From: Actinobacteria bacterium RBG_16_68_21
GTDB taxonomy: Bacteria; Actinomycetota; Acidimicrobiia; Spongiisociales; UBA11373
Direction of reading: 5' to 3'
NCBI GenBank assembly: GCA_001767695.1
Contig: MELR01000015.1
Coordinates: 39,887 to 103,886 of the forward strand
Length of the DNA: 64,000 nt
Shown here one piece after another: positions 1 through 43,093 of this stretch; within the stretch, counting starts at the first letter, position 1, and each line of letters begins with the position of its first letter. Made by a program: the position numbers and the translations under genes. Below the pieces are notes generated by a model. That model was not told the DNA's origin. It did not search any database and was given only the letters and a program-made list of their open reading frames with translations.

Positions 1-678
1 GCCGGGAGCGACACCATCTACGGAGGTGATGCCGACGACGTCATCGAGGGCGGGGGAGGGCGCGACGTCATCTACGGTGAGAACGGCGACGACCGGCTCG
101 TCGGGAACCGCGGAAGCGATACCGGCGACGGCGGCGACGGAACCGACACCTGCAAGTCGATCGAGACCGCCACATCGTGTGAAACGGGGACCGGCACGAC
201 GACCACCACCACGGTCCCTGCGGGAGCCCGCCTCGACTACACCCTGCCCGCGGCGATGAGTGTCACGTTGCCCACCAACTTCCCCCTCCCCGATCCGAGG
301 GTGTTCGGCATAGTCTCCGGCGGGGACATCAGCACGGCCTACCTCAACACGGACCCGCTGCACCGCAGCGGCGATTGCACCGGATTCGCGATCCAGAACC
401 CCGATTTCGAGCTGACCTATGCCGCCGGTATGGGGACCCAGCCGCTGCTTCGCTTCTGGTGGAGTTCGAACGACGGAACCGGCAACGCCGTGCTGATCAT
501 CAACGCTCCCAACGGGAAGTGGTTCTGCAACGACGACTCGTTCGGCACGCTCCATCCGACCATCGAATTCGACAACCCCACCACCGGGGTGTACGACGTG
601 TATGTGGCGAGCCGTACCGCGGGCAGCGGCCGGCCCGGCATGCTGAGGGTCACGGAACTCACCGGAAGTCACCCCTAG
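1..678 (+). CDS. Secreted calcium-binding repeat (RTX-type GGxGxD) protein. It is 5'-truncated by the window edge. The C-terminal part is a PPC (pre-peptidase C-terminal)-like beta-sandwich domain.
   Basis: Frame 1 is open from base 1 to the TAG at 676-678. The translation begins AGSDTIYGGDADDVIEGGGGRDVIYGENGDDRLVGNRGSDTGDGGDGTD, which is a set of nonapeptide GGxGxD repeats. The tail (LLRFWWSSNDGTGNAVLIINAPNGKWFCNDDSFG...VYDVYVASRTAGSG) resembles a PPC-type domain. The track ORF 256..678 is the in-frame internal Met. Confidence 0.6.
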   Translation, partial: AGSDTIYGGDADDVIEGGGGRDVIYGENGDDRLVGNRGSDTGDGGDGTDTCKSIETATSCETGTGTTTTTTVPAGARLDYTLPAAMSVTLPTNFPLPDPRVFGIVSGGDISTAYLNTDPLHRSGDCTGFAIQNPDFELTYAAGMGTQPLLRFWWSSNDGTGNAVLIINAPNGKWFCNDDSFGTLHPTIEFDNPTTGVYDVYVASRTAGSGRPGMLRVTELTGSHP

Positions 679-764
679 GTCCGAGAGTGCTGGAGAGCGG
701 GAGTCCGGTCTTCCGAGATACCGGGGTCACGGACGCCTGGGGTCGCTGAGTTAGGTTTCGAGCC

Positions 765-1481
765 TTGTCTAGGGTGCCTGCGATGAAGTCCATCAAGGCA
801 CTCAGTGTCATCGTGGTCCTCTCTGTGGCGACGTTCGCTCCGGGCGCATCCGGGGCCGAGGGTCCGGTGACCCACGGGAGCCGCGGCATGTCGACTTGTT
901 TCGGCCGGACGGCGACGCTTGTAGGAACCAACGGCGATGACCTCCTCGAGGGAGGACCTGGCTCGGACGTGATCGACGGTCGGGGCGGGAACGACACGAT
1001 CAACGGTCTCGGCGGCAAGGACTACCTGTGCGGTGGAGCCGGTGACGACACGATCAACGGCGGCGGCGGGCGGGACCGTATCAAGGGGCAGGGCGGAGAC
1101 GACGCCATAGATGGCGGGGCGGGCACAGACTTCGCCAACGGTGGCTCCGGTACCGACGAGTGCCTGGCCGAGTCGACCAGGAGATGTGAGGAGTCGGCGG
1201 TCCCGGACACCGTCGAGGTCTCGATCAAGAGCCTGGCATTCCATCCAGCCACGCTCACCGTTGTGGCGGGCACGACCGTCAGATGGACCAACAACGAGAG
1301 CAGCGACTACTACGGCGGCGGTGCTCTCACGCACACGGTGACCTCGACCAGTGAGCTGTGGGAGGAGCAGGTCCTGGGTGGTGGGGCGGCCTACGAGTTC
1401 ACGTTTGAGGCCCCGGGGACCTACGCCTACATGTGCACCATCCACCCGTCGATGACCGGGACGGTCACGGTCACCGGGTGA
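765..1481 (+). CDS. Secreted fusion protein: RTX-type calcium-binding repeats followed by a C-terminal type-1 (blue) copper cupredoxin domain.
   Basis: N-terminal signal peptide MKSIKALSVIVVLSVATFAPGASGA. Repeats GGPGSDVIDGRGGNDTINGLGGKDYLCGGAGDDTINGGGGRDRIKGQGGDDAIDGGAGTD. The C-terminus (FHPATLTVVAGTTVRWTNN...HTV...GTYAYMCTIHPSMTGTVTV) carries the His, Cys, His and Met ligand spacing of plastocyanin/pseudoazurin-like cupredoxins. Confidence 0.7.
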   Translation: MSRVPAMKSIKALSVIVVLSVATFAPGASGAEGPVTHGSRGMSTCFGRTATLVGTNGDDLLEGGPGSDVIDGRGGNDTINGLGGKDYLCGGAGDDTINGGGGRDRIKGQGGDDAIDGGAGTDFANGGSGTDECLAESTRRCEESAVPDTVEVSIKSLAFHPATLTVVAGTTVRWTNNESSDYYGGGALTHTVTSTSELWEEQVLGGGAAYEFTFEAPGTYAYMCTIHPSMTGTVTVTG

Positions 1482-23743: not shown

Positions 23744-23847
23744 GGCGAGCTCTCTTGTCGGGTTCGCGCTCTGGTTGACATCCCTCATGAACGGCGATAA
23801 CTTACTATCGCTAACTTACTGTCGATAAGTCACACGGGAGAGGTGTC

Positions 23848-26016
23848 ATGGAGAAGCTGGGTCGGTTCGTCGTTCGGTTGCGCTGGCCGGTGGTGATCGC
23901 CGCCCTCGTGTTCATGGCGGTGGCGGGAGCCGTCGGTGGCGGCGTCGCCGACTCCCTGTCCAACGGCGGGTTCCTCGATCCCAACGCCGAGTCGACCCTG
24001 GCGAGCGACCTCCTCGAGGACGGTTTCGGTGTGTCGGATCCGGCGGTCATCCTGGTGGTGAGCGCTCCCGGGGGTTCGGTGGACGATCCCGCGGTTGCCG
24101 CCGACGGCATCGCTCTCACTCAGGTCCTCGCCGCCGAGGAGGGCGTCACCGCGGCCTCGTCCTATTGGACGTTGGGGAGCCCACCGCCACTGCGAAGCTT
24201 CCGGGGCGATCGCGCCCTGGTGTTCGCCTCGATCGAGGGCGACCAGGGGGAGGTGCTCGATCACTCGGCAGCCATCTCGGACGAGTACCGAGGAAGCTTC
24301 GGTTCGCTCGAGGTGCTCGTCGGGGGCGTGGGGCCGCTCTTCTCCGAGGTGCAGGCGACGGTCGAGGCCGACCTGGCCCGGGCGGAACTGATCGCCTTCC
24401 CTCTGACCGCGGTGCTGCTCATCGTCGTCTTCGGCAGCCTGGTGGCCGCCTCCTTGCCGCTGGCCATGGGAGGACTCGCCATCGTCGGCTCACTCCTCAT
24501 CCTCCAGGTCCTCACCGGCTTCACCGAGGTCTCCATCTTTGCCCTCAACCTGACGACCGCGCTCGGCCTCGGTCTGGCGATCGACTACTCGCTCTTCATT
24601 GTGTCCCGCTTCCGTGAGCAACTCGGCCGGGGCGACCAAACCGGGGACGCGGTGGTGGCCACGGTGCGCACTGCCGGACGGACCGTGCTGTTCTCCGCAG
24701 CCACGGTTGCCGTCTCGCTGGCGGCGATGATCATCTTCAAGCTCGCCTTCCTGCGCTCGTTCGGATATGCCGGCATCGCCGTCGTCCTCATGGCGGCGAT
24801 CGGGGCGGTCGTCGTGTTGCCGGCGATCCTCGCCATCCTTGGCTCCCGGGTGGAGAAGGGCCGGGTGCGCAAGGCGCGGCAGAGCGCGGTGGAGGACGGC
24901 GTCTGGCACCGGGTGGCCACGTTTGTGATGCGGCGCCCGATTCCCATCGCCACCGCCGCCCTGCTGTTCCTCGTGGTTCTCGGGTTGCCGTTCCTGGGCG
25001 TGAACCTCGGGCAATCAGACGACCGGATGCTGTCGACGACGTCCAATGCCCGCACCACCGGCGACGTGATGCGCGCCGAGTTCTCGGCGTTCGAGTCGGC
25101 TCCGGTCGACGTCATCTTCCCCGGCCTCGCCGACACCTCCGAGGCCGACGCGCTGGCGGTCACGCTGTCCCGGCTCGACGGGGTGGCGCGAGTCGATGGT
25201 CCCACCGGGTCCTACATCGCGGGCTTCAACGTGATCTCCGGGGGCCCGGCATACGGTCGCTTCACCGCGGATGCCGGCATGTTCTTCTCGGCGATACCGT
25301 CGGTGGAGCCCAACGGCCCGGAGGCCGAGGCACTGGTCGACGAGATCCGGAGTCTCGACGTCGGCCGCACTCTCCTGGTGGGGGGAACGTCGGCGTTCCT
25401 CCACGACACCAAGGCATCACTGCTCGGCGACCTTCCCTGGACCCTGGGAGTCATCGCCGTCGTCACGTTCGTGCTGCTCTTCCTGATGTTCGGATCCGTC
25501 GTGGTTCCGGCCAAGGCGCTGGTACTCAACGTGCTCTCCCTCTCGGCGACCTTCGGCGCCCTCGTCTGGGTGTTCCAGGAGGGGCACTTCGCCGACCTGC
25601 TCGGTGTCACCGCCACCGGGTCTCTGGAGATCACGATGCCGATCCTCATGTTCTGCATCGCCTTCGGGCTCTCGATGGACTACGAGGTGTTCCTGCTCAG
25701 CCGCATCAAAGAGGAGCACGACCTCGGTGCGGACAACGTCGCTTCGGTGGCCCGCGGGCTGGAGCGGACCGGGCGGATCGTCACCGCGGCCGCGGTGCTG
25801 ATCGCGGTCGTGTTCCTGGCGTTCGCCACGTCCGAGGTGTCGTTCATGAAGATGTTCGGCGTCGGCATGACACTCGCCGTCCTCGTGGATGCCTTCGTGG
25901 TGCGGGCGACGCTCGTGCCCGCGTTCATGAGGCTCGCCGGCAATGCCAACTGGTGGGCGCCGCGGTGGATGAAGCGGATCTACAACCGGTTCGGGATCAG
26001 CGAGGTGACCGAGTGA
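23848..26016 (+). CDS. MMPL family (RND superfamily) transporter.
   Basis: 722 aa. Two 6-TM bundles. GLAIDYSLFIVSRFRE and GLSMDYEVFLLSRIKEE duplicated motifs. Confidence 0.85.
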   Translation: MEKLGRFVVRLRWPVVIAALVFMAVAGAVGGGVADSLSNGGFLDPNAESTLASDLLEDGFGVSDPAVILVVSAPGGSVDDPAVAADGIALTQVLAAEEGVTAASSYWTLGSPPPLRSFRGDRALVFASIEGDQGEVLDHSAAISDEYRGSFGSLEVLVGGVGPLFSEVQATVEADLARAELIAFPLTAVLLIVVFGSLVAASLPLAMGGLAIVGSLLILQVLTGFTEVSIFALNLTTALGLGLAIDYSLFIVSRFREQLGRGDQTGDAVVATVRTAGRTVLFSAATVAVSLAAMIIFKLAFLRSFGYAGIAVVLMAAIGAVVVLPAILAILGSRVEKGRVRKARQSAVEDGVWHRVATFVMRRPIPIATAALLFLVVLGLPFLGVNLGQSDDRMLSTTSNARTTGDVMRAEFSAFESAPVDVIFPGLADTSEADALAVTLSRLDGVARVDGPTGSYIAGFNVISGGPAYGRFTADAGMFFSAIPSVEPNGPEAEALVDEIRSLDVGRTLLVGGTSAFLHDTKASLLGDLPWTLGVIAVVTFVLLFLMFGSVVVPAKALVLNVLSLSATFGALVWVFQEGHFADLLGVTATGSLEITMPILMFCIAFGLSMDYEVFLLSRIKEEHDLGADNVASVARGLERTGRIVTAAAVLIAVVFLAFATSEVSFMKMFGVGMTLAVLVDAFVVRATLVPAFMRLAGNANWWAPRWMKRIYNRFGISEVTE

Positions 26017-35973: not shown

Positions 35974-36708
35974 ATGGCAACCACTGACGATCTGAGTTCG
36001 CAGCGGTTCTACCACGGTACGAAGGCCGACCTGAAGCCAGGGGACCTGATCGTGTCCGGCCAATCGCCCAACTCCGGTGAACAGGATCGGGCAACCGGCT
36101 ACGTCTACCTGACCGGCACCCTGGATGCGGCCGCCTGGGAAGCGGAGCTGGCACCCGGCGACGGTCCAGGCAGGATCTACATGGTCGAACCGACCGGCCC
36201 GATCATGGATGACCCGGACCTCACGGGTAAGAAGTATCCGGGTCCGGCGAAGTCATACCGCTCCCGAGAGCCGCTGCGGGTCACGGGTGAGGTCACGGAT
36301 TCGCAGGGGCGCCCGCTGCGGTTCTACCACGGCACGAAGGCTGACTTGAAGCCAGGGAACCTGATCGGGCCCGGCCACTCTCCCAACTTCGGTGAACAGG
36401 ATCGGGTAACGGACTACGTCTACCTGACCGGCACCCTGGATGCGGCAATCTGGGGGGCGGAGCTGGCACTTGGCGGTGGAGCGGGCAGGATCTACGAAGT
36501 GGAACCGACCGGCCCGATCATGGACGACCCCAATCTGACGAACATGAGGTATCGAGGCAATCCGACGAAGTCCTATCGCTCTCGAGAGCCGCTGCGGGTC
36601 ACGGGTGAGGTCACGGATTGGCAGGGGCACCCCCCGGAGACACTCCAGGCCATGAAGGACGGCCTGGAGCAACTCAAGAAGCTTGGTGTTGAGCCGATCG
36701 AGGACTGA
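35974..36708 (+). CDS. arr: Arr-family (NAD+:rifampin ADP-ribosyltransferase-like) protein. It contains two tandem Arr repeat units of about 105 aa each.
   Basis: RFYHGTKADLKPGDLI...YVYLTGTLDAAAWEAELA...RIYMVEPTGPIMDDPDLT...KSYRSREPLRVTGEVTD is repeated almost exactly from aa 117. The second copy ends ...DWQGHPPETLQAMKDGLEQLKKLGVEPIED, as in single-domain Arr proteins. The nucleotide repeats are 36007..36321 and 36322..36636. Confidence 0.75.
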   Translation: MATTDDLSSQRFYHGTKADLKPGDLIVSGQSPNSGEQDRATGYVYLTGTLDAAAWEAELAPGDGPGRIYMVEPTGPIMDDPDLTGKKYPGPAKSYRSREPLRVTGEVTDSQGRPLRFYHGTKADLKPGNLIGPGHSPNFGEQDRVTDYVYLTGTLDAAIWGAELALGGGAGRIYEVEPTGPIMDDPNLTNMRYRGNPTKSYRSREPLRVTGEVTDWQGHPPETLQAMKDGLEQLKKLGVEPIED

Positions 36709-38451: not shown

Positions 38452-40749
38452 GTGCTCGCTCGTCTCGGTCGCTTTGCCGCCGCCCACCCCTGGCGCTACG
38501 TCGCCGCCTGGATGCTCACCGCCGCCCTGCTGGTGGGCGGCGTGGTGACGGTCGGAGCGGCGTTCACTTCAAGAATCACCGCCCCGGCGTCGGAGAGCAG
38601 CGCCGGGCTCGACCTGCTGGCGAGCGAGTTCCCGGGCGCCGGCGGCGATGCCGGCTCGATCGTGTTCGTCGCCGAGCAGGGAGTCGAAGACCCCGAGGTG
38701 GCCTCCACCATGACCGGCCTCTTCGAGGCGGTGAAGGAGATCGATGGCGTCGTCAACGTGGTCAGCCCCTACTCCCCTGTGGGCGCCGGCCAGATCTCCG
38801 TCCTGGGCGACTCCGCCGGAAAGGTCGCCTACGCTCAATTGGCGCTCGAATCGGGCACCACCACCGACGACGGGGCGAGGATCTACGACGAGATCACCGC
38901 GCTCTCCCCCGACATCGCCGGGCTGGAGATCGCCCTCGGGGGCGACATGTTCCGCCACCGTGAACCCCCGAGCTCGGAGATGCTGGGACTGGCCTTCGCC
39001 ATCTTCGTGCTCATCCTCTCGTTCGGCTCCGTGCTGGCCATGGGACTGCCCATCGCCACCGCCCTGGCCGGGGTCGGGACCGGGGTGGCGGCGACCGCCT
39101 TGCTGAGCAACCTCATCGAGATGCCCGACTTCGCCGCCACGATCGGGGTGATGATCGGTCTCGGCGTGGGGATCGACTACGCCCTCTTCATCGTCACCCG
39201 GTACCAGCAGCACCTTGCCGCCGGAGCGTCGCCCCCCGAGTCGATGGCGGCAGCGCTCGACCGTGCTGGCCGGGCGGTGCTCTTTGCCGGGGTGACCGTG
39301 GTGGTCTCGCTCCTGGGCATGGTGCTGATGGGGGTCGGTTTCGTCACCGGCCTCGCCTTAGCCGCCGCCACGACAGTGGTACTCACCATGGCGGCGTCCG
39401 TCACGTTGCTCCCCGCCCTGGTCGGGCTGGCGGGACAGCGCATTCAGATCACCAGGTGGAGTGGCCTGATCGGCTCGCTCCTGGTCGCCGTCGCCATGAT
39501 CGGCGTCGCCCTCGGGGTGCCGGAGCTTCGCTTCGCCCTGGTCGCCGCGGTGGTGGTGCTGATCGCCGGCCGGTTCGGCAGCCCCCTCTCCAGGACGATC
39601 ACCCTGCGCAAGGAGAAGCCGCTCGAGGCCACCGCCTCGTACCGGTGGAGTCGCTTCGTGCAGCGGCGGGCGGCCATCATCACCGTCTCGGCGTCGCTGG
39701 TGCTGGCGATCGCCGCCCTCCCCTTGTTCTCGATCCAACTCGGGTTCACCGACGCCGGCAACGACCCGGAAGGCATTACGACCCGGCGAGCGTACGACCT
39801 GTTGGAGGCCGGATTCGGCGCCGGCGCCAACGGGCCACTGGTCCTGATCGCCACCCTCCCCGACGGTGCCGACCCGAGGGCGCTCCAGGGGGTGACGGCG
39901 ACCCTGGGCGAGGTGGAAGGCGTCGCCCAGGTGTCGGTGGGCATCCCCAACGACCCGCAGCAGCCCACCGCGATGCTGTGGCAGCTGACCCCCGAGACCG
40001 GACCGCAGGACGAGGCGACCACCTACCTGGTCCACCGGCTGCGCGACGAGGTGATCACCGGAATCGACGCCGACTTGGGCACTGAGATCCTGGTGGCCGG
40101 CTCGGTGGCGGCCAACATCGACTTCTCCGACTACCTGGCGGAGCGCATCTGGTACTTCTACGGAGCGGTGCTGCTGATCTCGTTCCTGTTCCTCTTGGCG
40201 GTGTTCCGTTCGGTGTTGGTGCCGTTGAAGGCGGTCTCCATGAACCTGCTGGCGATCGGCGCCGCCTACGGCGTGGTGGTGGCGGTGTTCCAGTGGGGCT
40301 GGGGAGGGTCGCTGCTCGGGATCGAGCCGGGCCCGATCGAGCCGTTTGTCCCGATGATGCTGTTCGCCATCGTCTTCGGGCTCTCCATGGACTACGAGGT
40401 GTTCCTCCTCACCCGGATCCGGGAGGAGTACGACCGGACCGCCGACAACACGAGTGCCGTCGCCGACGGGCTGGCGGCCACCGCCCGGGTGATCACCGCC
40501 GCCGCCCTGATCATGGTGTTCGTCTTCGCCTCCTTCGTGCTCGAAGACACGCGGACGGTCAAAGTCCTCGGCCTCGGACTGGCGGCGGCAGTAGCCATCG
40601 ATGCCACCGTTATCCGCATGCTGCTCGTCCCGGCGACCATGGAGCTGCTCGGCGACAGGAACTGGTGGATCCCGAAGTGGCTCGACCGTGTGCTACCTAA
40701 CCTGGTGGTGGAGCCGCGGAAGGTCTCCGCCGAGTCGCAAGCGGGGTGA
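38452..40749 (+). CDS. MMPL family (RND superfamily) transporter, second copy in the window.
   Basis: 765 aa. GVGIDYALFIVTRYQQ and GLSMDYEVFLLTRIREE. Confidence 0.85.
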   Translation: MLARLGRFAAAHPWRYVAAWMLTAALLVGGVVTVGAAFTSRITAPASESSAGLDLLASEFPGAGGDAGSIVFVAEQGVEDPEVASTMTGLFEAVKEIDGVVNVVSPYSPVGAGQISVLGDSAGKVAYAQLALESGTTTDDGARIYDEITALSPDIAGLEIALGGDMFRHREPPSSEMLGLAFAIFVLILSFGSVLAMGLPIATALAGVGTGVAATALLSNLIEMPDFAATIGVMIGLGVGIDYALFIVTRYQQHLAAGASPPESMAAALDRAGRAVLFAGVTVVVSLLGMVLMGVGFVTGLALAAATTVVLTMAASVTLLPALVGLAGQRIQITRWSGLIGSLLVAVAMIGVALGVPELRFALVAAVVVLIAGRFGSPLSRTITLRKEKPLEATASYRWSRFVQRRAAIITVSASLVLAIAALPLFSIQLGFTDAGNDPEGITTRRAYDLLEAGFGAGANGPLVLIATLPDGADPRALQGVTATLGEVEGVAQVSVGIPNDPQQPTAMLWQLTPETGPQDEATTYLVHRLRDEVITGIDADLGTEILVAGSVAANIDFSDYLAERIWYFYGAVLLISFLFLLAVFRSVLVPLKAVSMNLLAIGAAYGVVVAVFQWGWGGSLLGIEPGPIEPFVPMMLFAIVFGLSMDYEVFLLTRIREEYDRTADNTSAVADGLAATARVITAAALIMVFVFASFVLEDTRTVKVLGLGLAAAVAIDATVIRMLLVPATMELLGDRNWWIPKWLDRVLPNLVVEPRKVSAESQAG

Positions 40750-41016
40750 GGACGGTCATCGCCTCAGGGAGTTCCGACTTCAGCCGCAGCGCTCCGTTTG
40801 CCTCGGGAGCCACCCGGTGCCATCACGCTGCTCGATCATCACCCGGCCCTGGCGGTGCCCGTAGGCACCTCGGTGGACGAAGGCAACCTCGCTGGAGATC
40901 TCTGGCTCCATTTCTGGAGTGCCGGGTGGCACGAGATCATCGGCGCGTAGGATGAGTGCGTCGGCGGGCGATTGGACGGCTGCGTCGGGTACCTGGCGGC
41001 CTGCAGTTGGCCCCAC

Positions 41017-41619
41017 TCAGCCGCGCAACAGGCGAATCGCCTCCCTGCGAACCCTCGAAAGCACGTCGGGAAGCACCTTCCCAGCAAACGACTTGTCGTC
41101 CACAGCGTGCTCCGCTCGTTCTTCGAGCTTCTTCCAGTCGATGCGTTCGTAGGCCGCGACCCCCAGCCGGACCGCCTCGTCGAATGCCACCGGCTCTTCC
41201 CCAGTTGCCTGCAGGAGCCGATCCATGATCAGGTCGTTCAGCGAGATCACCGCCAGTTCTCCTGGTGCCAGGTCGATCACCTGCGGCCGTTCGGTGTCGA
41301 AGTCGCCCAAGCTGTCTCCAGGTACCTCGATCGCGAGTCTTTCCTCATCGTCGAAGGAGAACAACCAGCGCCGCCCGTCCTTCTTGAAGCCGAGTTCTCT
41401 GAGTGATCGGGCCTGGTCGGGCTTGCGATGCCCGACCAGATCGATGTCGGTGGGTCGATATGAGCCAGTGTGGAGCTCCACTGCCGCCCCACTCACGAGC
41501 ACCGCTCCCTCGAGGCCCGCGCTGGCGAAGGCTGCCGCGGTGAGCAGCTTCCGTCGAATGGAGTTCTGTGGCGCGTCTGACGCCCGTCGCAGCAGCTCGG
41601 TTGCCTGCGCGTCAGGCAC
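41017..41619 (-). CDS. Nucleotidyltransferase-fold protein. Candidate toxin or effector partner of the upstream XRE HTH.
   Basis: ELHTGSYRPTDIDLV fits the pol-beta-type hG[GS]x(5-13)DhD motif. The GTG start overlaps the stop of the HTH gene by 8 nt (GTGCCTGA). Confidence 0.5.
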   Translation of the reverse strand: MPDAQATELLRRASDAPQNSIRRKLLTAAAFASAGLEGAVLVSGAAVELHTGSYRPTDIDLVGHRKPDQARSLRELGFKKDGRRWLFSFDDEERLAIEVPGDSLGDFDTERPQVIDLAPGELAVISLNDLIMDRLLQATGEEPVAFDEAVRLGVAAYERIDWKKLEERAEHAVDDKSFAGKVLPDVLSRVRREAIRLLRG

Positions 41620-41986
41620 CGGCGTTCAACAGCGTTTGTTCGACTGTGATGTCGATCCCAAGACGCTGCCTCGCGTCGAGTCGCTCTTGCGGAGACGAAG
41701 CACCGAGTCCGGCCGCGACAAGTCGTGCGCGACCCCGCTCGGATGACGCGACAACCTCATCAATCGAGACCCGAGTGGTCCGAGGCACTAGTTGGATTTC
41801 GAGTCCCAGCGCATCCAACACCCTTTCGAGAGTGCTGAGGCGGAGGTCCACCTTGCCGCTCTCGATCTTGGAGAGGTTGGGAACAGCGATGCCTGACGCT
41901 CGAGATACCGCGGACTGTGTCAGTCCGGTGGCCTCTCGGGCCAGGCGCAGTCTGCTGGCAAGGTTGATTCTCAGGTCCTCTGTTAT
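41612..41986 (-). CDS. XRE (Cro/C1)-family HTH protein with a C-terminal extension. The start codon is uncertain.
   Basis: LASRLRLAREATGLTQSAVSRASGIAVPNLSKIESGK is a textbook XRE HTH. The frame is open up to a TGA at 42017-42019, but the first canonical start (GTG at 41851) lies after the HTH. An ATA, CTG or ATC start near 41970-41986 is therefore implied. Confidence 0.5.
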   Translation of the reverse strand: MTEDLRINLASRLRLAREATGLTQSAVSRASGIAVPNLSKIESGKVDLRLSTLERVLDALGLEIQLVPRTTRVSIDEVVASSERGRARLVAAGLGASSPQERLDARQRLGIDITVEQTLLNAGA

Positions 41987-41991
41987 GGAGT

Positions 41992-42020
41992 ACGCTAAGT
42001 TATCGAATAGTATAAGTCAA
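41992..42020 (-). promoter_or_regulatory. Putative sigma-70-type promoter: TTGACT - 17 nt - TAGCGT, in an AT-rich stretch.
   Basis: Reverse strand reads cTTGACTtatactattcgataactTAGCGTactccataacagaggacctgag. This is the most AT-rich 60 nt in the window. Confidence 0.35.
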
Positions 42021-42168
42021 GACCTGACTGGCTTCTCCCCGGGAGTGTGTGGGCAGACCTTGGCTGAGACGGCCAATCTCGTGTGCGCTTCCCGGACCCT
42101 GGCGACGCCTGCGGACCACACCAGATCGACGGTGCCATCCGAGGTCAGCCCGACGGCGAGCCAGGCTG

Positions 42169-42654
42169 TCAGCCCGCCGCCTTCTTCACGAGCGCGCCGA
42201 TCCGCTTCTCCTCGGCGGCGGTCAACTCCTTCAGTGCGAATGCGGTCGGCCACATGGCGCCTTCGTCGAGGTCTGCCTTGTCGCTGAACCCGAATGTCGC
42301 ATACCTCGTCTTGAACTTGTGTGCGCTTTGGTAGAAGCAAATGACTGTGCCGTCCTTGGCATACGCCGGCATCCCGTACCAGGTCTTCGGCGACAGAACT
42401 GGCGCGCTGGCCTTGACGATCGCATGGATCCGCTCGGCCATGGCGCGATCGGGTTGCGGCATCTCGGCTATCTTGGCGAGCACGTCGCTTTCTCCGTCCG
42501 CCTTGCCCGCGCCGCGGCGGGCGGCCGCCTTTTGCTCTTGGGCACGCTCCTTCATCGCGGCGCGTTCCTCGTCCGTGAACCCCTTGGACCCCCTGCCAGT
42601 TGTGCTCTTGGCGGGTCGCGGCGTGCCTCTTGTCGCAGGTTTTCTCTCAGCCAT
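42169..42654 (-). CDS. DUF1801 (YdhG-like) domain protein with a Lys/Arg-rich N-terminal extension.
   Basis: [35 protein letters not shown]. Confidence 0.55.
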
Positions 42655-43093
42655 TGCGATTCACCTCCGTGCGTCGAACGGGCACCACAGCTGCGCGGGC
42701 AGTGGGCGAAGGCGGTTGACGCTACTGCCTTGAGAGAGACCACACGGAGAGGGCGGTCACTGCGAGGCTCAGAAACCCGGTCAGATACCGGGGAGACACG
42801 CTCAGTGCCAACGCCCGTGCCGGCGCTCCGGTGTCACGATCCAACACCGACCGATGCGATGGGGTACGTCGCGGCTGCTCCAGCGGTCGACGGGAGTCGG
42901 CCATGGGTACGCCAAGCGGTCGCCCTCAACAGCTTCGGCAAGTCGAAGTCTTCGAAAAGAGCGAAGTCCCAGCAGGGTGTTGATTGTCTCCGCGTGAGGA
43001 CGCAGAGCCGCCAGGGTCGATCGCGCTGTTGGCTCGATCGACGCCGCGACCTCGTCGAAGGTCGGCTGTCTCGATTAACGTGCCGGTTCGCCC

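Follow-up and report, generated by a model that had tools for sequence, protein, structure and literature searches.

The window analysed here is a stretch of 64,000 nucleotides from contig MELR01000015.1 of Actinobacteria bacterium RBG_16_68_21, and all positions without a locus name are counted within it. Between 42020 and 41017, on the minus strand, it contains two small overlapping genes behind an AT-rich promoter region: the first encodes an XRE-family helix-turn-helix (HTH) protein, and the second a protein with a nucleotidyltransferase (NTase) motif of the pol-beta type. The original prediction, made from the sequence of the locus, regarded this pair as a candidate toxin–antitoxin or Abi-like module. 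The locus belongs to a conserved type of two-gene operon, with translational coupling of the genes, whose copies come mainly from uncultured Acidimicrobiia and other Actinomycetota. The copy in the window differs from its relatives in the promoter, the start codon of the first gene and the catalytic motif of the second.

An overlapping HTH–NTase gene pair and its relatives

Both genes are present as described. The minus-strand frame 41986-41612 encodes an XRE HTH protein matching the Pfam families HTH_31 (E 4.7e-12) and HTH_3 (E 5e-11) over residues 9-65, and the open reading frame (ORF) that follows it, 200 codons long and begun with GTG (41619-41017), carries the motif VLVSGAAVELHTGSYRPTDIDLV. 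The GTG of the NTase gene (41619-41617) overlaps the stop codon of the HTH gene (TGA, 41614-41612) by the predicted 8 nt, as GTGCCTGA, which implies translational coupling of the two genes. No paralogue of either gene is present elsewhere in the window. Among 37 homologous loci (designated here L001, L002 and so on), the XRE gene lies immediately 5′ of the NTase gene in 36, the exception being situated at a contig end. The pair, together with the overlap and the upstream region, recurs in dozens of independent contigs, more than chance would produce. Overlap of the reading frames was seen in nearly all relatives; it amounts to 8 nt (RTGCCTGA/RTGCCTAG) in the near clade and to 4 nt (NTGA) in the far clade. 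The 102 homologues collected are all unnamed and come nearly all from metagenome bins of Acidimicrobiia or other Actinomycetota. A search of 185,579 species genomes found 32 loci in varied neighbourhoods, and the module appears common in environmental Acidimicrobiia. Remote relatives of the NTase are also accompanied by a small upstream partner, which may be a 120-aa HTH protein, a 67-aa HTH protein or an 86-aa protein of no assigned type.

The 200-aa protein matches no family in Pfam, NCBIfam or PADLOC scans, and PDB chains, searched by sequence and by profile, gave chance matches only, with no MenT protein recovered. The signature of pol-beta NTases consists of hG[GS] and, 9-13 residues further on, Dh[DE]h. 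The family consensus, V-G-G-x13-D-I-D-L plus E98, is this classic pattern; the window copy reads V-S-G and has D58 and D60 intact. Residues G44, T51, P56, T57, D58, D60, E98, D133 and R134 are invariant in the family alignment, and D129, Q137 and T139 are, together with D133 and R134, the conserved residues of the C-terminal part. The invariant T57 stands directly before D58 (P-T-D-I-D, 41448-41451). In the AlphaFold2 (AF2) model of the protein (pLDDT 92.9, pTM 0.87), the core elements follow in the order strand, helix, DxD strand and E98 strand, so that an alpha/beta core is present and the third carboxylate, E98, is located on a later beta strand. When this model was compared with solved structures by Foldseek, the NTase-like protein 5uvd and MenT1 (8an5, 8an4) were found with E values of about 5e-4 to 2e-3 (7.5e-4 for MenT1); 5uvd, a fungal protein, scores slightly above MenT1. 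Further fold matches are MenT3, ANT(2''), LnuA and TM1012 (PDB 2ewr), the last being a solved small putative NTase. By this model, the pol-beta NTase fold that had been read from the motif is well supported.

The relationship of the NTase to curated families can be traced through distant sequences. In 1.84 billion representative proteins, a profile search picked out 743 clusters at 50% identity; of 51 remote ones, 29 match DUF6036, 21 DUF2204 and 6 NTP_transf_5, with E values down to 2e-8. Sub-threshold matches to DUF6036 occur in 19 of 39 close relatives and to PF08843 in 6 of the 39, the latter at E 0.01 or worse. The window NTase itself matches none of DUF6036, DUF2204 and NTP_transf_5 even at E <1, and it has no match to PF08843. 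The protein thus belongs to the small-NTase clan, in a branch of it that is outlying and uncurated; its homology to DUF6036 and DUF2204 is seen only via remote relatives. A literature search on DUF6036 and DUF2204 returned nothing relevant, and neither these two families nor NTP_transf_5 have a known function, so that membership would not explain a mechanism.

The AF2 model of the HTH protein (pLDDT 74.7, pTM 0.46) contains the four helices of the HTH domain and three C-terminal helices. The HTH domain is structurally nearest to HipB (Foldseek E 8.5e-4, TM 0.78 over the target), DdrO and the C-proteins of restriction-modification systems. Against the TIGR03070 (couple_hipB) profile the protein reaches 46.3 bits, below the cut-off of 71.65. 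The unusual C-terminal extension, first estimated at about 60 aa, is real and measures about 53 aa; its motif, G-R..L..G.G.S.P..RL..K..RG.D..VE..L, is kept in 29 partner proteins, and the 53-aa segment has no structural match by Foldseek.

Coordinates of the features of the HTH–NTase locus, in order of transcription
Feature	Position	Strand	Remarks
-35-like hexamer TTGACT	42020-42015	minus	TTGACA or TTGACT in relatives
Operator-like AT-rich region ACTTATACTATTCGATAACTTAGCGTACTCCATAAC	42017-41982	minus	spans spacer and -10; degenerate TTAT/ATAA dyads
-10-like hexamer TAGCGT	41997-41992	minus	17-nt spacer; weakened form of the family's TATCGT
Shine-Dalgarno sequence GAGGA	41980-41976	minus	7 nt before the ATC codon
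ATC codon	41968-41966	minus	occupies the family's ATG/GTG start position; weak start or dead start site
XRE-family HTH gene	41968-41612	minus	118 codons plus stop, counted from ATC
HTH domain	41968-41774	minus	residues 1-65; Pfam HTH_31 and HTH_3
C-terminal extension of HTH protein	41773-41615	minus	residues 66-118; conserved in relatives
Start/stop overlap GTGCCTGA	41619-41612	minus	8 nt
NTase gene	41619-41017	minus	200 aa, GTG start; minimal pol-beta fold, unannotated family
NTase motif I, S43-G44	41493-41488	minus	key codons
NTase catalytic residue D58	41448-41446	minus	
NTase catalytic residue D60	41442-41440	minus	
NTase catalytic residue E98	41328-41326	minus	

In the surroundings of the module, no Rfam family was detected in 40500-42700, and the window contains no tRNA gene. 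The 78-aa ORF just downstream (40780-41016) has no family match, is absent from the gene calls of the sister contig L038 and was dismissed as spurious. Directly downstream and convergent with the module lies a gene of an MMPL-family transporter (38452-40749, plus strand, 765 aa); in the sister contig (4647-4985), a TetR regulator in divergent orientation comes after MMPL, and the two look like a TetR-MMPL efflux unit. Farther away, an ORF of 244 codons (35974-36708, plus strand) encodes an Arr-ms rifampin ADP-ribosyltransferase (E 8.4e-82, residues 117-216, with two matched stretches reported), whose first 115 or so residues form an extension with no assigned domain. Upstream of the module, 42169-42654 on the minus strand encodes a 161-aa protein with a sub-threshold match to DUF1801 (E 1.7e-4, 22.4 bits vs the cut-off of 27.2); the gene ends about 150 nt before the module promoter, and read-through into the module is conceivable. 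In L001, the closest annotated relative, a gene for a PemK/MazF-type toxin (76-360, minus strand), itself preceded by a small partner gene, is located about 3.3 kb from the HTH–NTase module, and this locus may hold a small cluster of toxin–antitoxin modules.

Promoter, start codon and derived changes of the window copy

The segment upstream of the HTH gene was described as the most AT-rich of the window, and this holds at the 40-, 60- and 100-nt scales: GC content is lowest here at each of them and is 0.325 at 41983-42022, vs 0.68 window-wide. The second most AT-rich segment, 23775-23834 (GC 0.42 over 60 nt), lies just 5′ of an ORF of 722 codons (23848-26016, plus strand) and is presumably another promoter region. 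The hexamers and the spacer of the proposed promoter, TTGACT-17-TAGCGT, are present as described, but the element fails a sigma-70 scan, because TAGCGT agrees with the -10 consensus at just three of six positions. The promoters of the relatives pass the same scan. They read TTGACA/T-17-TATCGT, with 9-10 of 12 positions matching, and TATCGT was found in L039, L048, L001 and L007. Perfect palindromes lie over the promoter in relatives, with 16-nt arms in L007 and 9-nt arms in L001, and the palindrome ACTTAT-N8-ATAAGT occurs in several loci, including L006. The window's operator region holds no perfect inverted repeat of at least 6 nt, only degenerate dyads. The position of the relatives' palindromes, across the spacer and the -10 hexamer, points to autoregulation of the operon.

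The start codon of the HTH gene requires separate consideration. No ATG, GTG or TTG occurs in frame between the upstream stop codon (TGA, 42019-42017, within the -35 hexamer) and GTG 41851. It is correct that the HTH precedes the first canonical start, since this GTG falls behind the recognition helix; the length of the open frame ahead of it, given as 36 codons, is in fact 55, or 39 when counted from the ATC. The three non-canonical codons considered, ATA (41986), CTG (41974) and ATC (41968), are all in the HTH frame. As starts, ATA was rejected for lying upstream of the Shine-Dalgarno sequence and CTG for following GAGGA by 1 nt. GTG 41851 was discarded as well, with the recognition helix lost and no good Shine-Dalgarno sequence ahead of it, as was the out-of-frame TTG 41961, which would yield a 13-aa peptide. 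The predicted leader of about 17 nt, with GAGGA in it, means that the transcript is not near-leaderless.

Comparison with the relatives changes the meaning of the ATC codon. The codon aligned with it is GTG in L001, L011, L039 and L048 and ATG in L006, L007, L009, L010, L012, L002 and L013, and in close relatives GAGGA or AGGAG stands 6-8 nt before the start. L039, with 97% nucleotide identity, reads GAGGAC ATG AGA GTG at the site where the window reads GAGGAC CTG AGA ATC. The missing start is best seen as a recent, lineage-specific lesion and not as a trait of the family. In E. coli, AUC initiates translation at about 1-2% of the efficiency of AUG, and the N-terminal Met of the product was confirmed (10.1101/063800); at this rate, small amounts of HTH protein, and of NTase coupled to it, may still be made. 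The original prediction had allowed only a non-canonical start codon or a near-leaderless transcript for translation. The comparison shows instead a recent change of GTG to ATC in one lineage, after which weak AUC initiation may continue. Public gene calling in L038 illustrates the consequence: the HTH gene was missed and a spurious antisense ORF of 212 codons (715-1353, minus strand) was called instead, while the NTase gene was begun at an internal GTG, giving a product of 161 aa (P0001; 1500-1985, plus strand). This artefact arises because the start codon was lost, and so a single lesion corrupts the annotation of the whole module.

The direction of the changes was determined by comparing the window with L039, L001 serving as outgroup. 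Seven of the 18 differences between the window and L039 fall within the 61 nt of 41960-42020 (binomial p 0.0016 for clustering). Six of the seven are derived in the window and that at 41963 is not polarisable; no change derived in L039 was found in this segment. The derived changes are a G-to-A substitution in the operator (42011), a T-to-G substitution turning the -10 hexamer from TATCGT into TAGCGT (41995), the replacement of a nearby ATG by CTG (41974), the two substitutions that convert GTG into ATC (41968 and 41966) and a synonymous change (41960). In the NTase gene, GGT became AGT at 41493 in the window lineage, and the first glycine of motif I is replaced by serine (G43S), which occurs in no other of the about 133 homologues in which the motif can be recognised. 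At columns of the alignment at least 90% conserved, the window NTase deviates in 5 of 49 (G43S, H84R, G92E, G141E and T145A), the median being 1; besides G43S, the changes of this lineage at conserved NTase residues are H84R, M131I, G141E and T145A. On the NTase branch, 24 derived changes were counted in the window vs 10 in L048 (Tajima p 0.016).

Function of the module and state of this copy

The layout characteristic of type II toxin–antitoxin systems was found here, namely two adjacent, co-oriented small genes with the DNA binder first and with overlapping reading frames. The order of the genes, the coupling, the operator over the promoter, the enzyme in second place, the variability of the partner and the patchy or decayed copies lead together to a type II toxin–antitoxin reading. 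The description of the enzyme as one with intact catalytic residues applies to the family as far as motif I is concerned, since the window copy carries G43S. Our judgement inclines, if only slightly, to the view that the pair is a type II toxin–antitoxin-like module and that the window holds an attenuated copy of it or one at an early stage of decay. The broader claim of a toxin–antitoxin or Abi-like module thus retains its plausibility through layout, conservation and fold, whereas membership of the AbiE or MNT groups is not supported.

The state of some relatives is relevant to this reading. The metagenome-assembled genome (MAG) Old_saline.mb.35 contains two copies, L011, which is intact, and L027, in which the HTH gene (69-425) is intact and the NTase (418-627) is truncated: it ends nine codons after DID, with RPTDIDGELAPDPLA directly before the stop, and an unrelated gene of 437 codons follows on the other strand. 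In L036 (2513-3957), from an Acidobacteriota MAG, the module is fragmented and partly duplicated: the HTH gene is truncated, an N-terminal piece of the NTase occurs twice, once in degraded form, and pieces of its C-terminal part stand separately. The decay in L027 and L036 shows a pattern typical of toxin–antitoxin modules.

It is proposed that the HTH protein represses the operon via the dyads overlapping the promoter and neutralises the NTase through its C-terminal extension. Free NTase would add nucleotides to a cellular target via its G-G...DxD...E site and arrest growth; the likeliest target would be the tRNA 3′ end, as for MenT. For the window copy, the weakened promoter, the near-dead antitoxin start and the altered catalytic motif would jointly explain how a loss of antitoxin translation could be tolerated. 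Judged from the sequence comparisons, this copy is probably attenuated or recently silenced and in early decay.

A number of observations weigh against this reading. Regarding the toxin–antitoxin part, tblastn found no homologue in plasmid or phage collections (a scan of IMG/VR gave two weak partial matches only), and no marks of mobile elements were found around the window module, whose neighbourhood is of ordinary chromosomal type, with genes for Arr, an alpha/beta hydrolase, an MMPL transporter and a DUF1801 protein. The NTase fold resembles ANT(2'') and LnuA almost as closely as it does MenT. The extension of the HTH protein, which is modelled with moderate confidence, could serve for dimerisation alone, as in DdrO. 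Regarding the decay, both reading frames of the window copy are intact, and comparison of the window with L001 gives dN/dS values (ratios of nonsynonymous to synonymous substitution rates) of 0.41 in the NTase gene and 0.26 in the HTH gene, where codons 1-39 taken alone have 0.21; these values indicate that constraint was held over most of the divergence. The nonsynonymous-to-synonymous counts are the same in proportion on both NTase branches, 16:8 in the window and 7:3 in L048, and relaxed selection is therefore not demonstrated by rates; the derived amino-acid counts relative to L001 are also equal (17 vs 16). Where the changes fall, and not how fast they accumulated, suggests a relaxation of selection.

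Other functions of the pair can be considered. One is that the NTase is a non-toxic enzyme acting on small molecules, such as an antibiotic or xenobiotic to be inactivated, and that the HTH protein is only its repressor, the extension serving for dimerisation or for sensing of the ligand. The fold similarities just mentioned are consistent with this proposal, as are the dimerisation of DdrO-like XRE proteins by C-terminal helices, the Arr, glyoxalase/bleomycin-resistance-type and MMPL transporter genes near the module, and the glyoxalase and SnoaL genes that flank it in L004 and L005. However, flanking genes differ between loci, known antibiotic NTases do not normally follow a small HTH gene with a 4- or 8-nt overlap, and L027 has kept the HTH gene and lost the NTase. 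The type of partner varies across the superfamily while the layout with a small upstream partner persists, as is the case with the varied MenA antitoxins (PMC10435456). Taken together, we regard a repressor-controlled small-molecule enzyme as unlikely. It is very improbable that the roles are reversed and that the NTase is a regulator that covalently modifies its HTH partner or some third protein, in the manner of type VII systems, where MNT AMPylates HEPN. The MNT antitoxins of HEPN-MNT are also minimal NTases, and the conserved Ser-x-Pro and charged motif of the HTH extension would be a conceivable site of modification; yet L016, L017 and L018 have Arg in place of the conserved Ser, neither HEPN nor any other candidate toxin is present in the window operon or in those of the relatives, XRE HTH proteins are not known as toxins, and a DNA binder in first place corresponds to the antitoxin-then-toxin order. 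Within the toxin–antitoxin reading itself, a more far-reaching version, which we consider unlikely, assumes that the XRE–NTase pair constitutes a new and sizeable toxin–antitoxin or abortive-infection family of uncultured Actinomycetota, with a target or a control of the NTase unlike that of MenT, and that antitoxin made at the level allowed by AUC is tolerated in the window lineage owing to attenuation by G43S. Such control might involve the HTH extension, inserted into the NTase active site or modified by it, or the invariant T57 beside D58, which could act as an auto-phosphorylation switch.

The state of the window copy also admits different explanations. The ATC might be a selected non-canonical start that throttles translation of a fully active module, like the AUU of infC and pcnB. 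This would agree with its place at the ancestral start position, with GAGGA at 7-nt spacing, with the low but real efficiency of AUC in E. coli (10.1101/063800), with the intact ORFs, with the low dN/dS of the N-terminal 39 codons relative to L001 and with the presence of the same ATC state in two contigs. Nevertheless, the low dN/dS mostly predates the mutation, a single shallow lineage shows the state, GTG or ATG being present in all relatives, L039 among them, and the coincidence of a weak -10, lost operator symmetry, the change of ATG to CTG and G43S fits erosion better than tuning. A selected throttle is accordingly rather unlikely in our estimation, if by no means far-fetched. That the missing start is an artefact of assembly or sequencing, and that the true genome has a normal GTG, might be suspected because the sequence is metagenome-derived and two bases of one codon are changed. 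The independent ENA contig L038 (sample ERZ27256843), with 2 differences from the window in about 1080 nt, has the identical ATC, CTG, TAGCGT and AGT (S43), so that these states are not assembly errors; the changes are, moreover, substitutions and not indels. An artefact is hardly credible.

If the toxin–antitoxin-like reading is correct and the NTase is toxic, then the module widens the repertoire of partners known for NTase toxins and offers a compact system for their study. In either case, the locus adds a family not captured by Pfam, in which a minimal NTase fold resembling that of MenT1 is combined with an XRE/HipB-like protein predicted to be an autoregulator. The derived changes in promoter, operator, start codon and catalytic motif provide a snapshot of possible silencing without frameshifts or stop codons.

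Comparison with known systems

The NTase toxins AbiEii and MenT1-4 are a recently understood class of proteins, which block translation by extending tRNA 3′ ends. The extension of tRNA 3′ ends by MenT toxins, and the diversity of their antitoxins, were documented in two studies (PMC10435456, PMC11375011). With AbiEi/AbiEii and with MenAT3 and MenAT4, the window module shares the order of genes, a DNA-binding, autoregulating antitoxin upstream of an NTase-fold toxin, these roles being predicted ones here. The resemblance to AbiEi/AbiEii or MNT systems suggested by the original prediction does not extend further: PF08843 is reached only below threshold in the few relatives mentioned, and the partner is XRE/HipB-like and not of the AbiEi/COG5340 type, its XRE HTH and short extension of helices contrasting with a winged helix and a large C-terminal domain. 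The DUF1814 toxins have four signature motifs, including a specific C-terminal motif IV (PMC10435456). In the NTase described here, motifs I-III are present at the level of the family; no Lys/Arg pattern resembling motif IV was recognised. The NTase was correctly described as shorter than AbiEii, by about 90 aa.

On the side of the first gene, HipB, HigA2 and the Xre of Xre-RES systems are likewise encoded in the promoter-proximal position, with operator-like dyads overlapping the promoter. The resemblance to HipB (TIGR03070) is at the level of fold and concerns the HTH domain only, and the partner differs from those of HipB-type antitoxins, being an NTase and not a HipA kinase, a RelE/HigB or a RES toxin. 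By sequence, DUF6036, DUF2204 and NTP_transf_5 are the nearest families of the NTase, with the restriction that they are reached via remote members and that the window protein itself has no match to them. ANT(2'')-Ia and LnuA, in contrast to the NTase considered here, are stand-alone resistance genes with no overlapped HTH partner, and there is no sequence-family match to them. From HEPN-MNT (type VII) the module differs in having no adjacent HEPN gene, either in the window or in the operons of its relatives.

The system that offers the closest comparison is MenAT1 of M. tuberculosis (toxin MenT1, Rv0078A; antitoxin MenA1, Rv0078B; PDB 8an4, 8an5). It too belongs to an actinobacterial host, and in both systems a short gene for the partner precedes that of a minimal NTase (about 190-200 aa), in which a pol-beta core is joined to a C-terminal part made of helices. 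The partners are different, since MenA1 is a protein of 68 aa without a DNA-binding domain (PMC10435456) and the XRE protein of the window has 118 aa. The NTases show no detectable sequence similarity, with PF08843/DUF1814 unmatched at threshold, and the essential K137 of MenT1 has no obvious Lys counterpart here, where D133-R134 is invariant. Control of MenT toxins is partly achieved by auto-phosphorylation of a Ser or Thr near the catalytic Asp, the phosphorylated residues, T39 in MenT1 and S78 in MenT3, standing two positions before it (PMC10435456, PMC11375011). A Thr near the catalytic Asp is a feature that the window NTase shares with MenT1, as T57-D58 compared with T39-x-D41 (PMC11375011), although it is placed at -1 from the Asp here and at -2 in MenT1. 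Judged by the structural model, MenT1 is the nearest in fold to the NTase among functionally characterised proteins of solved structure.

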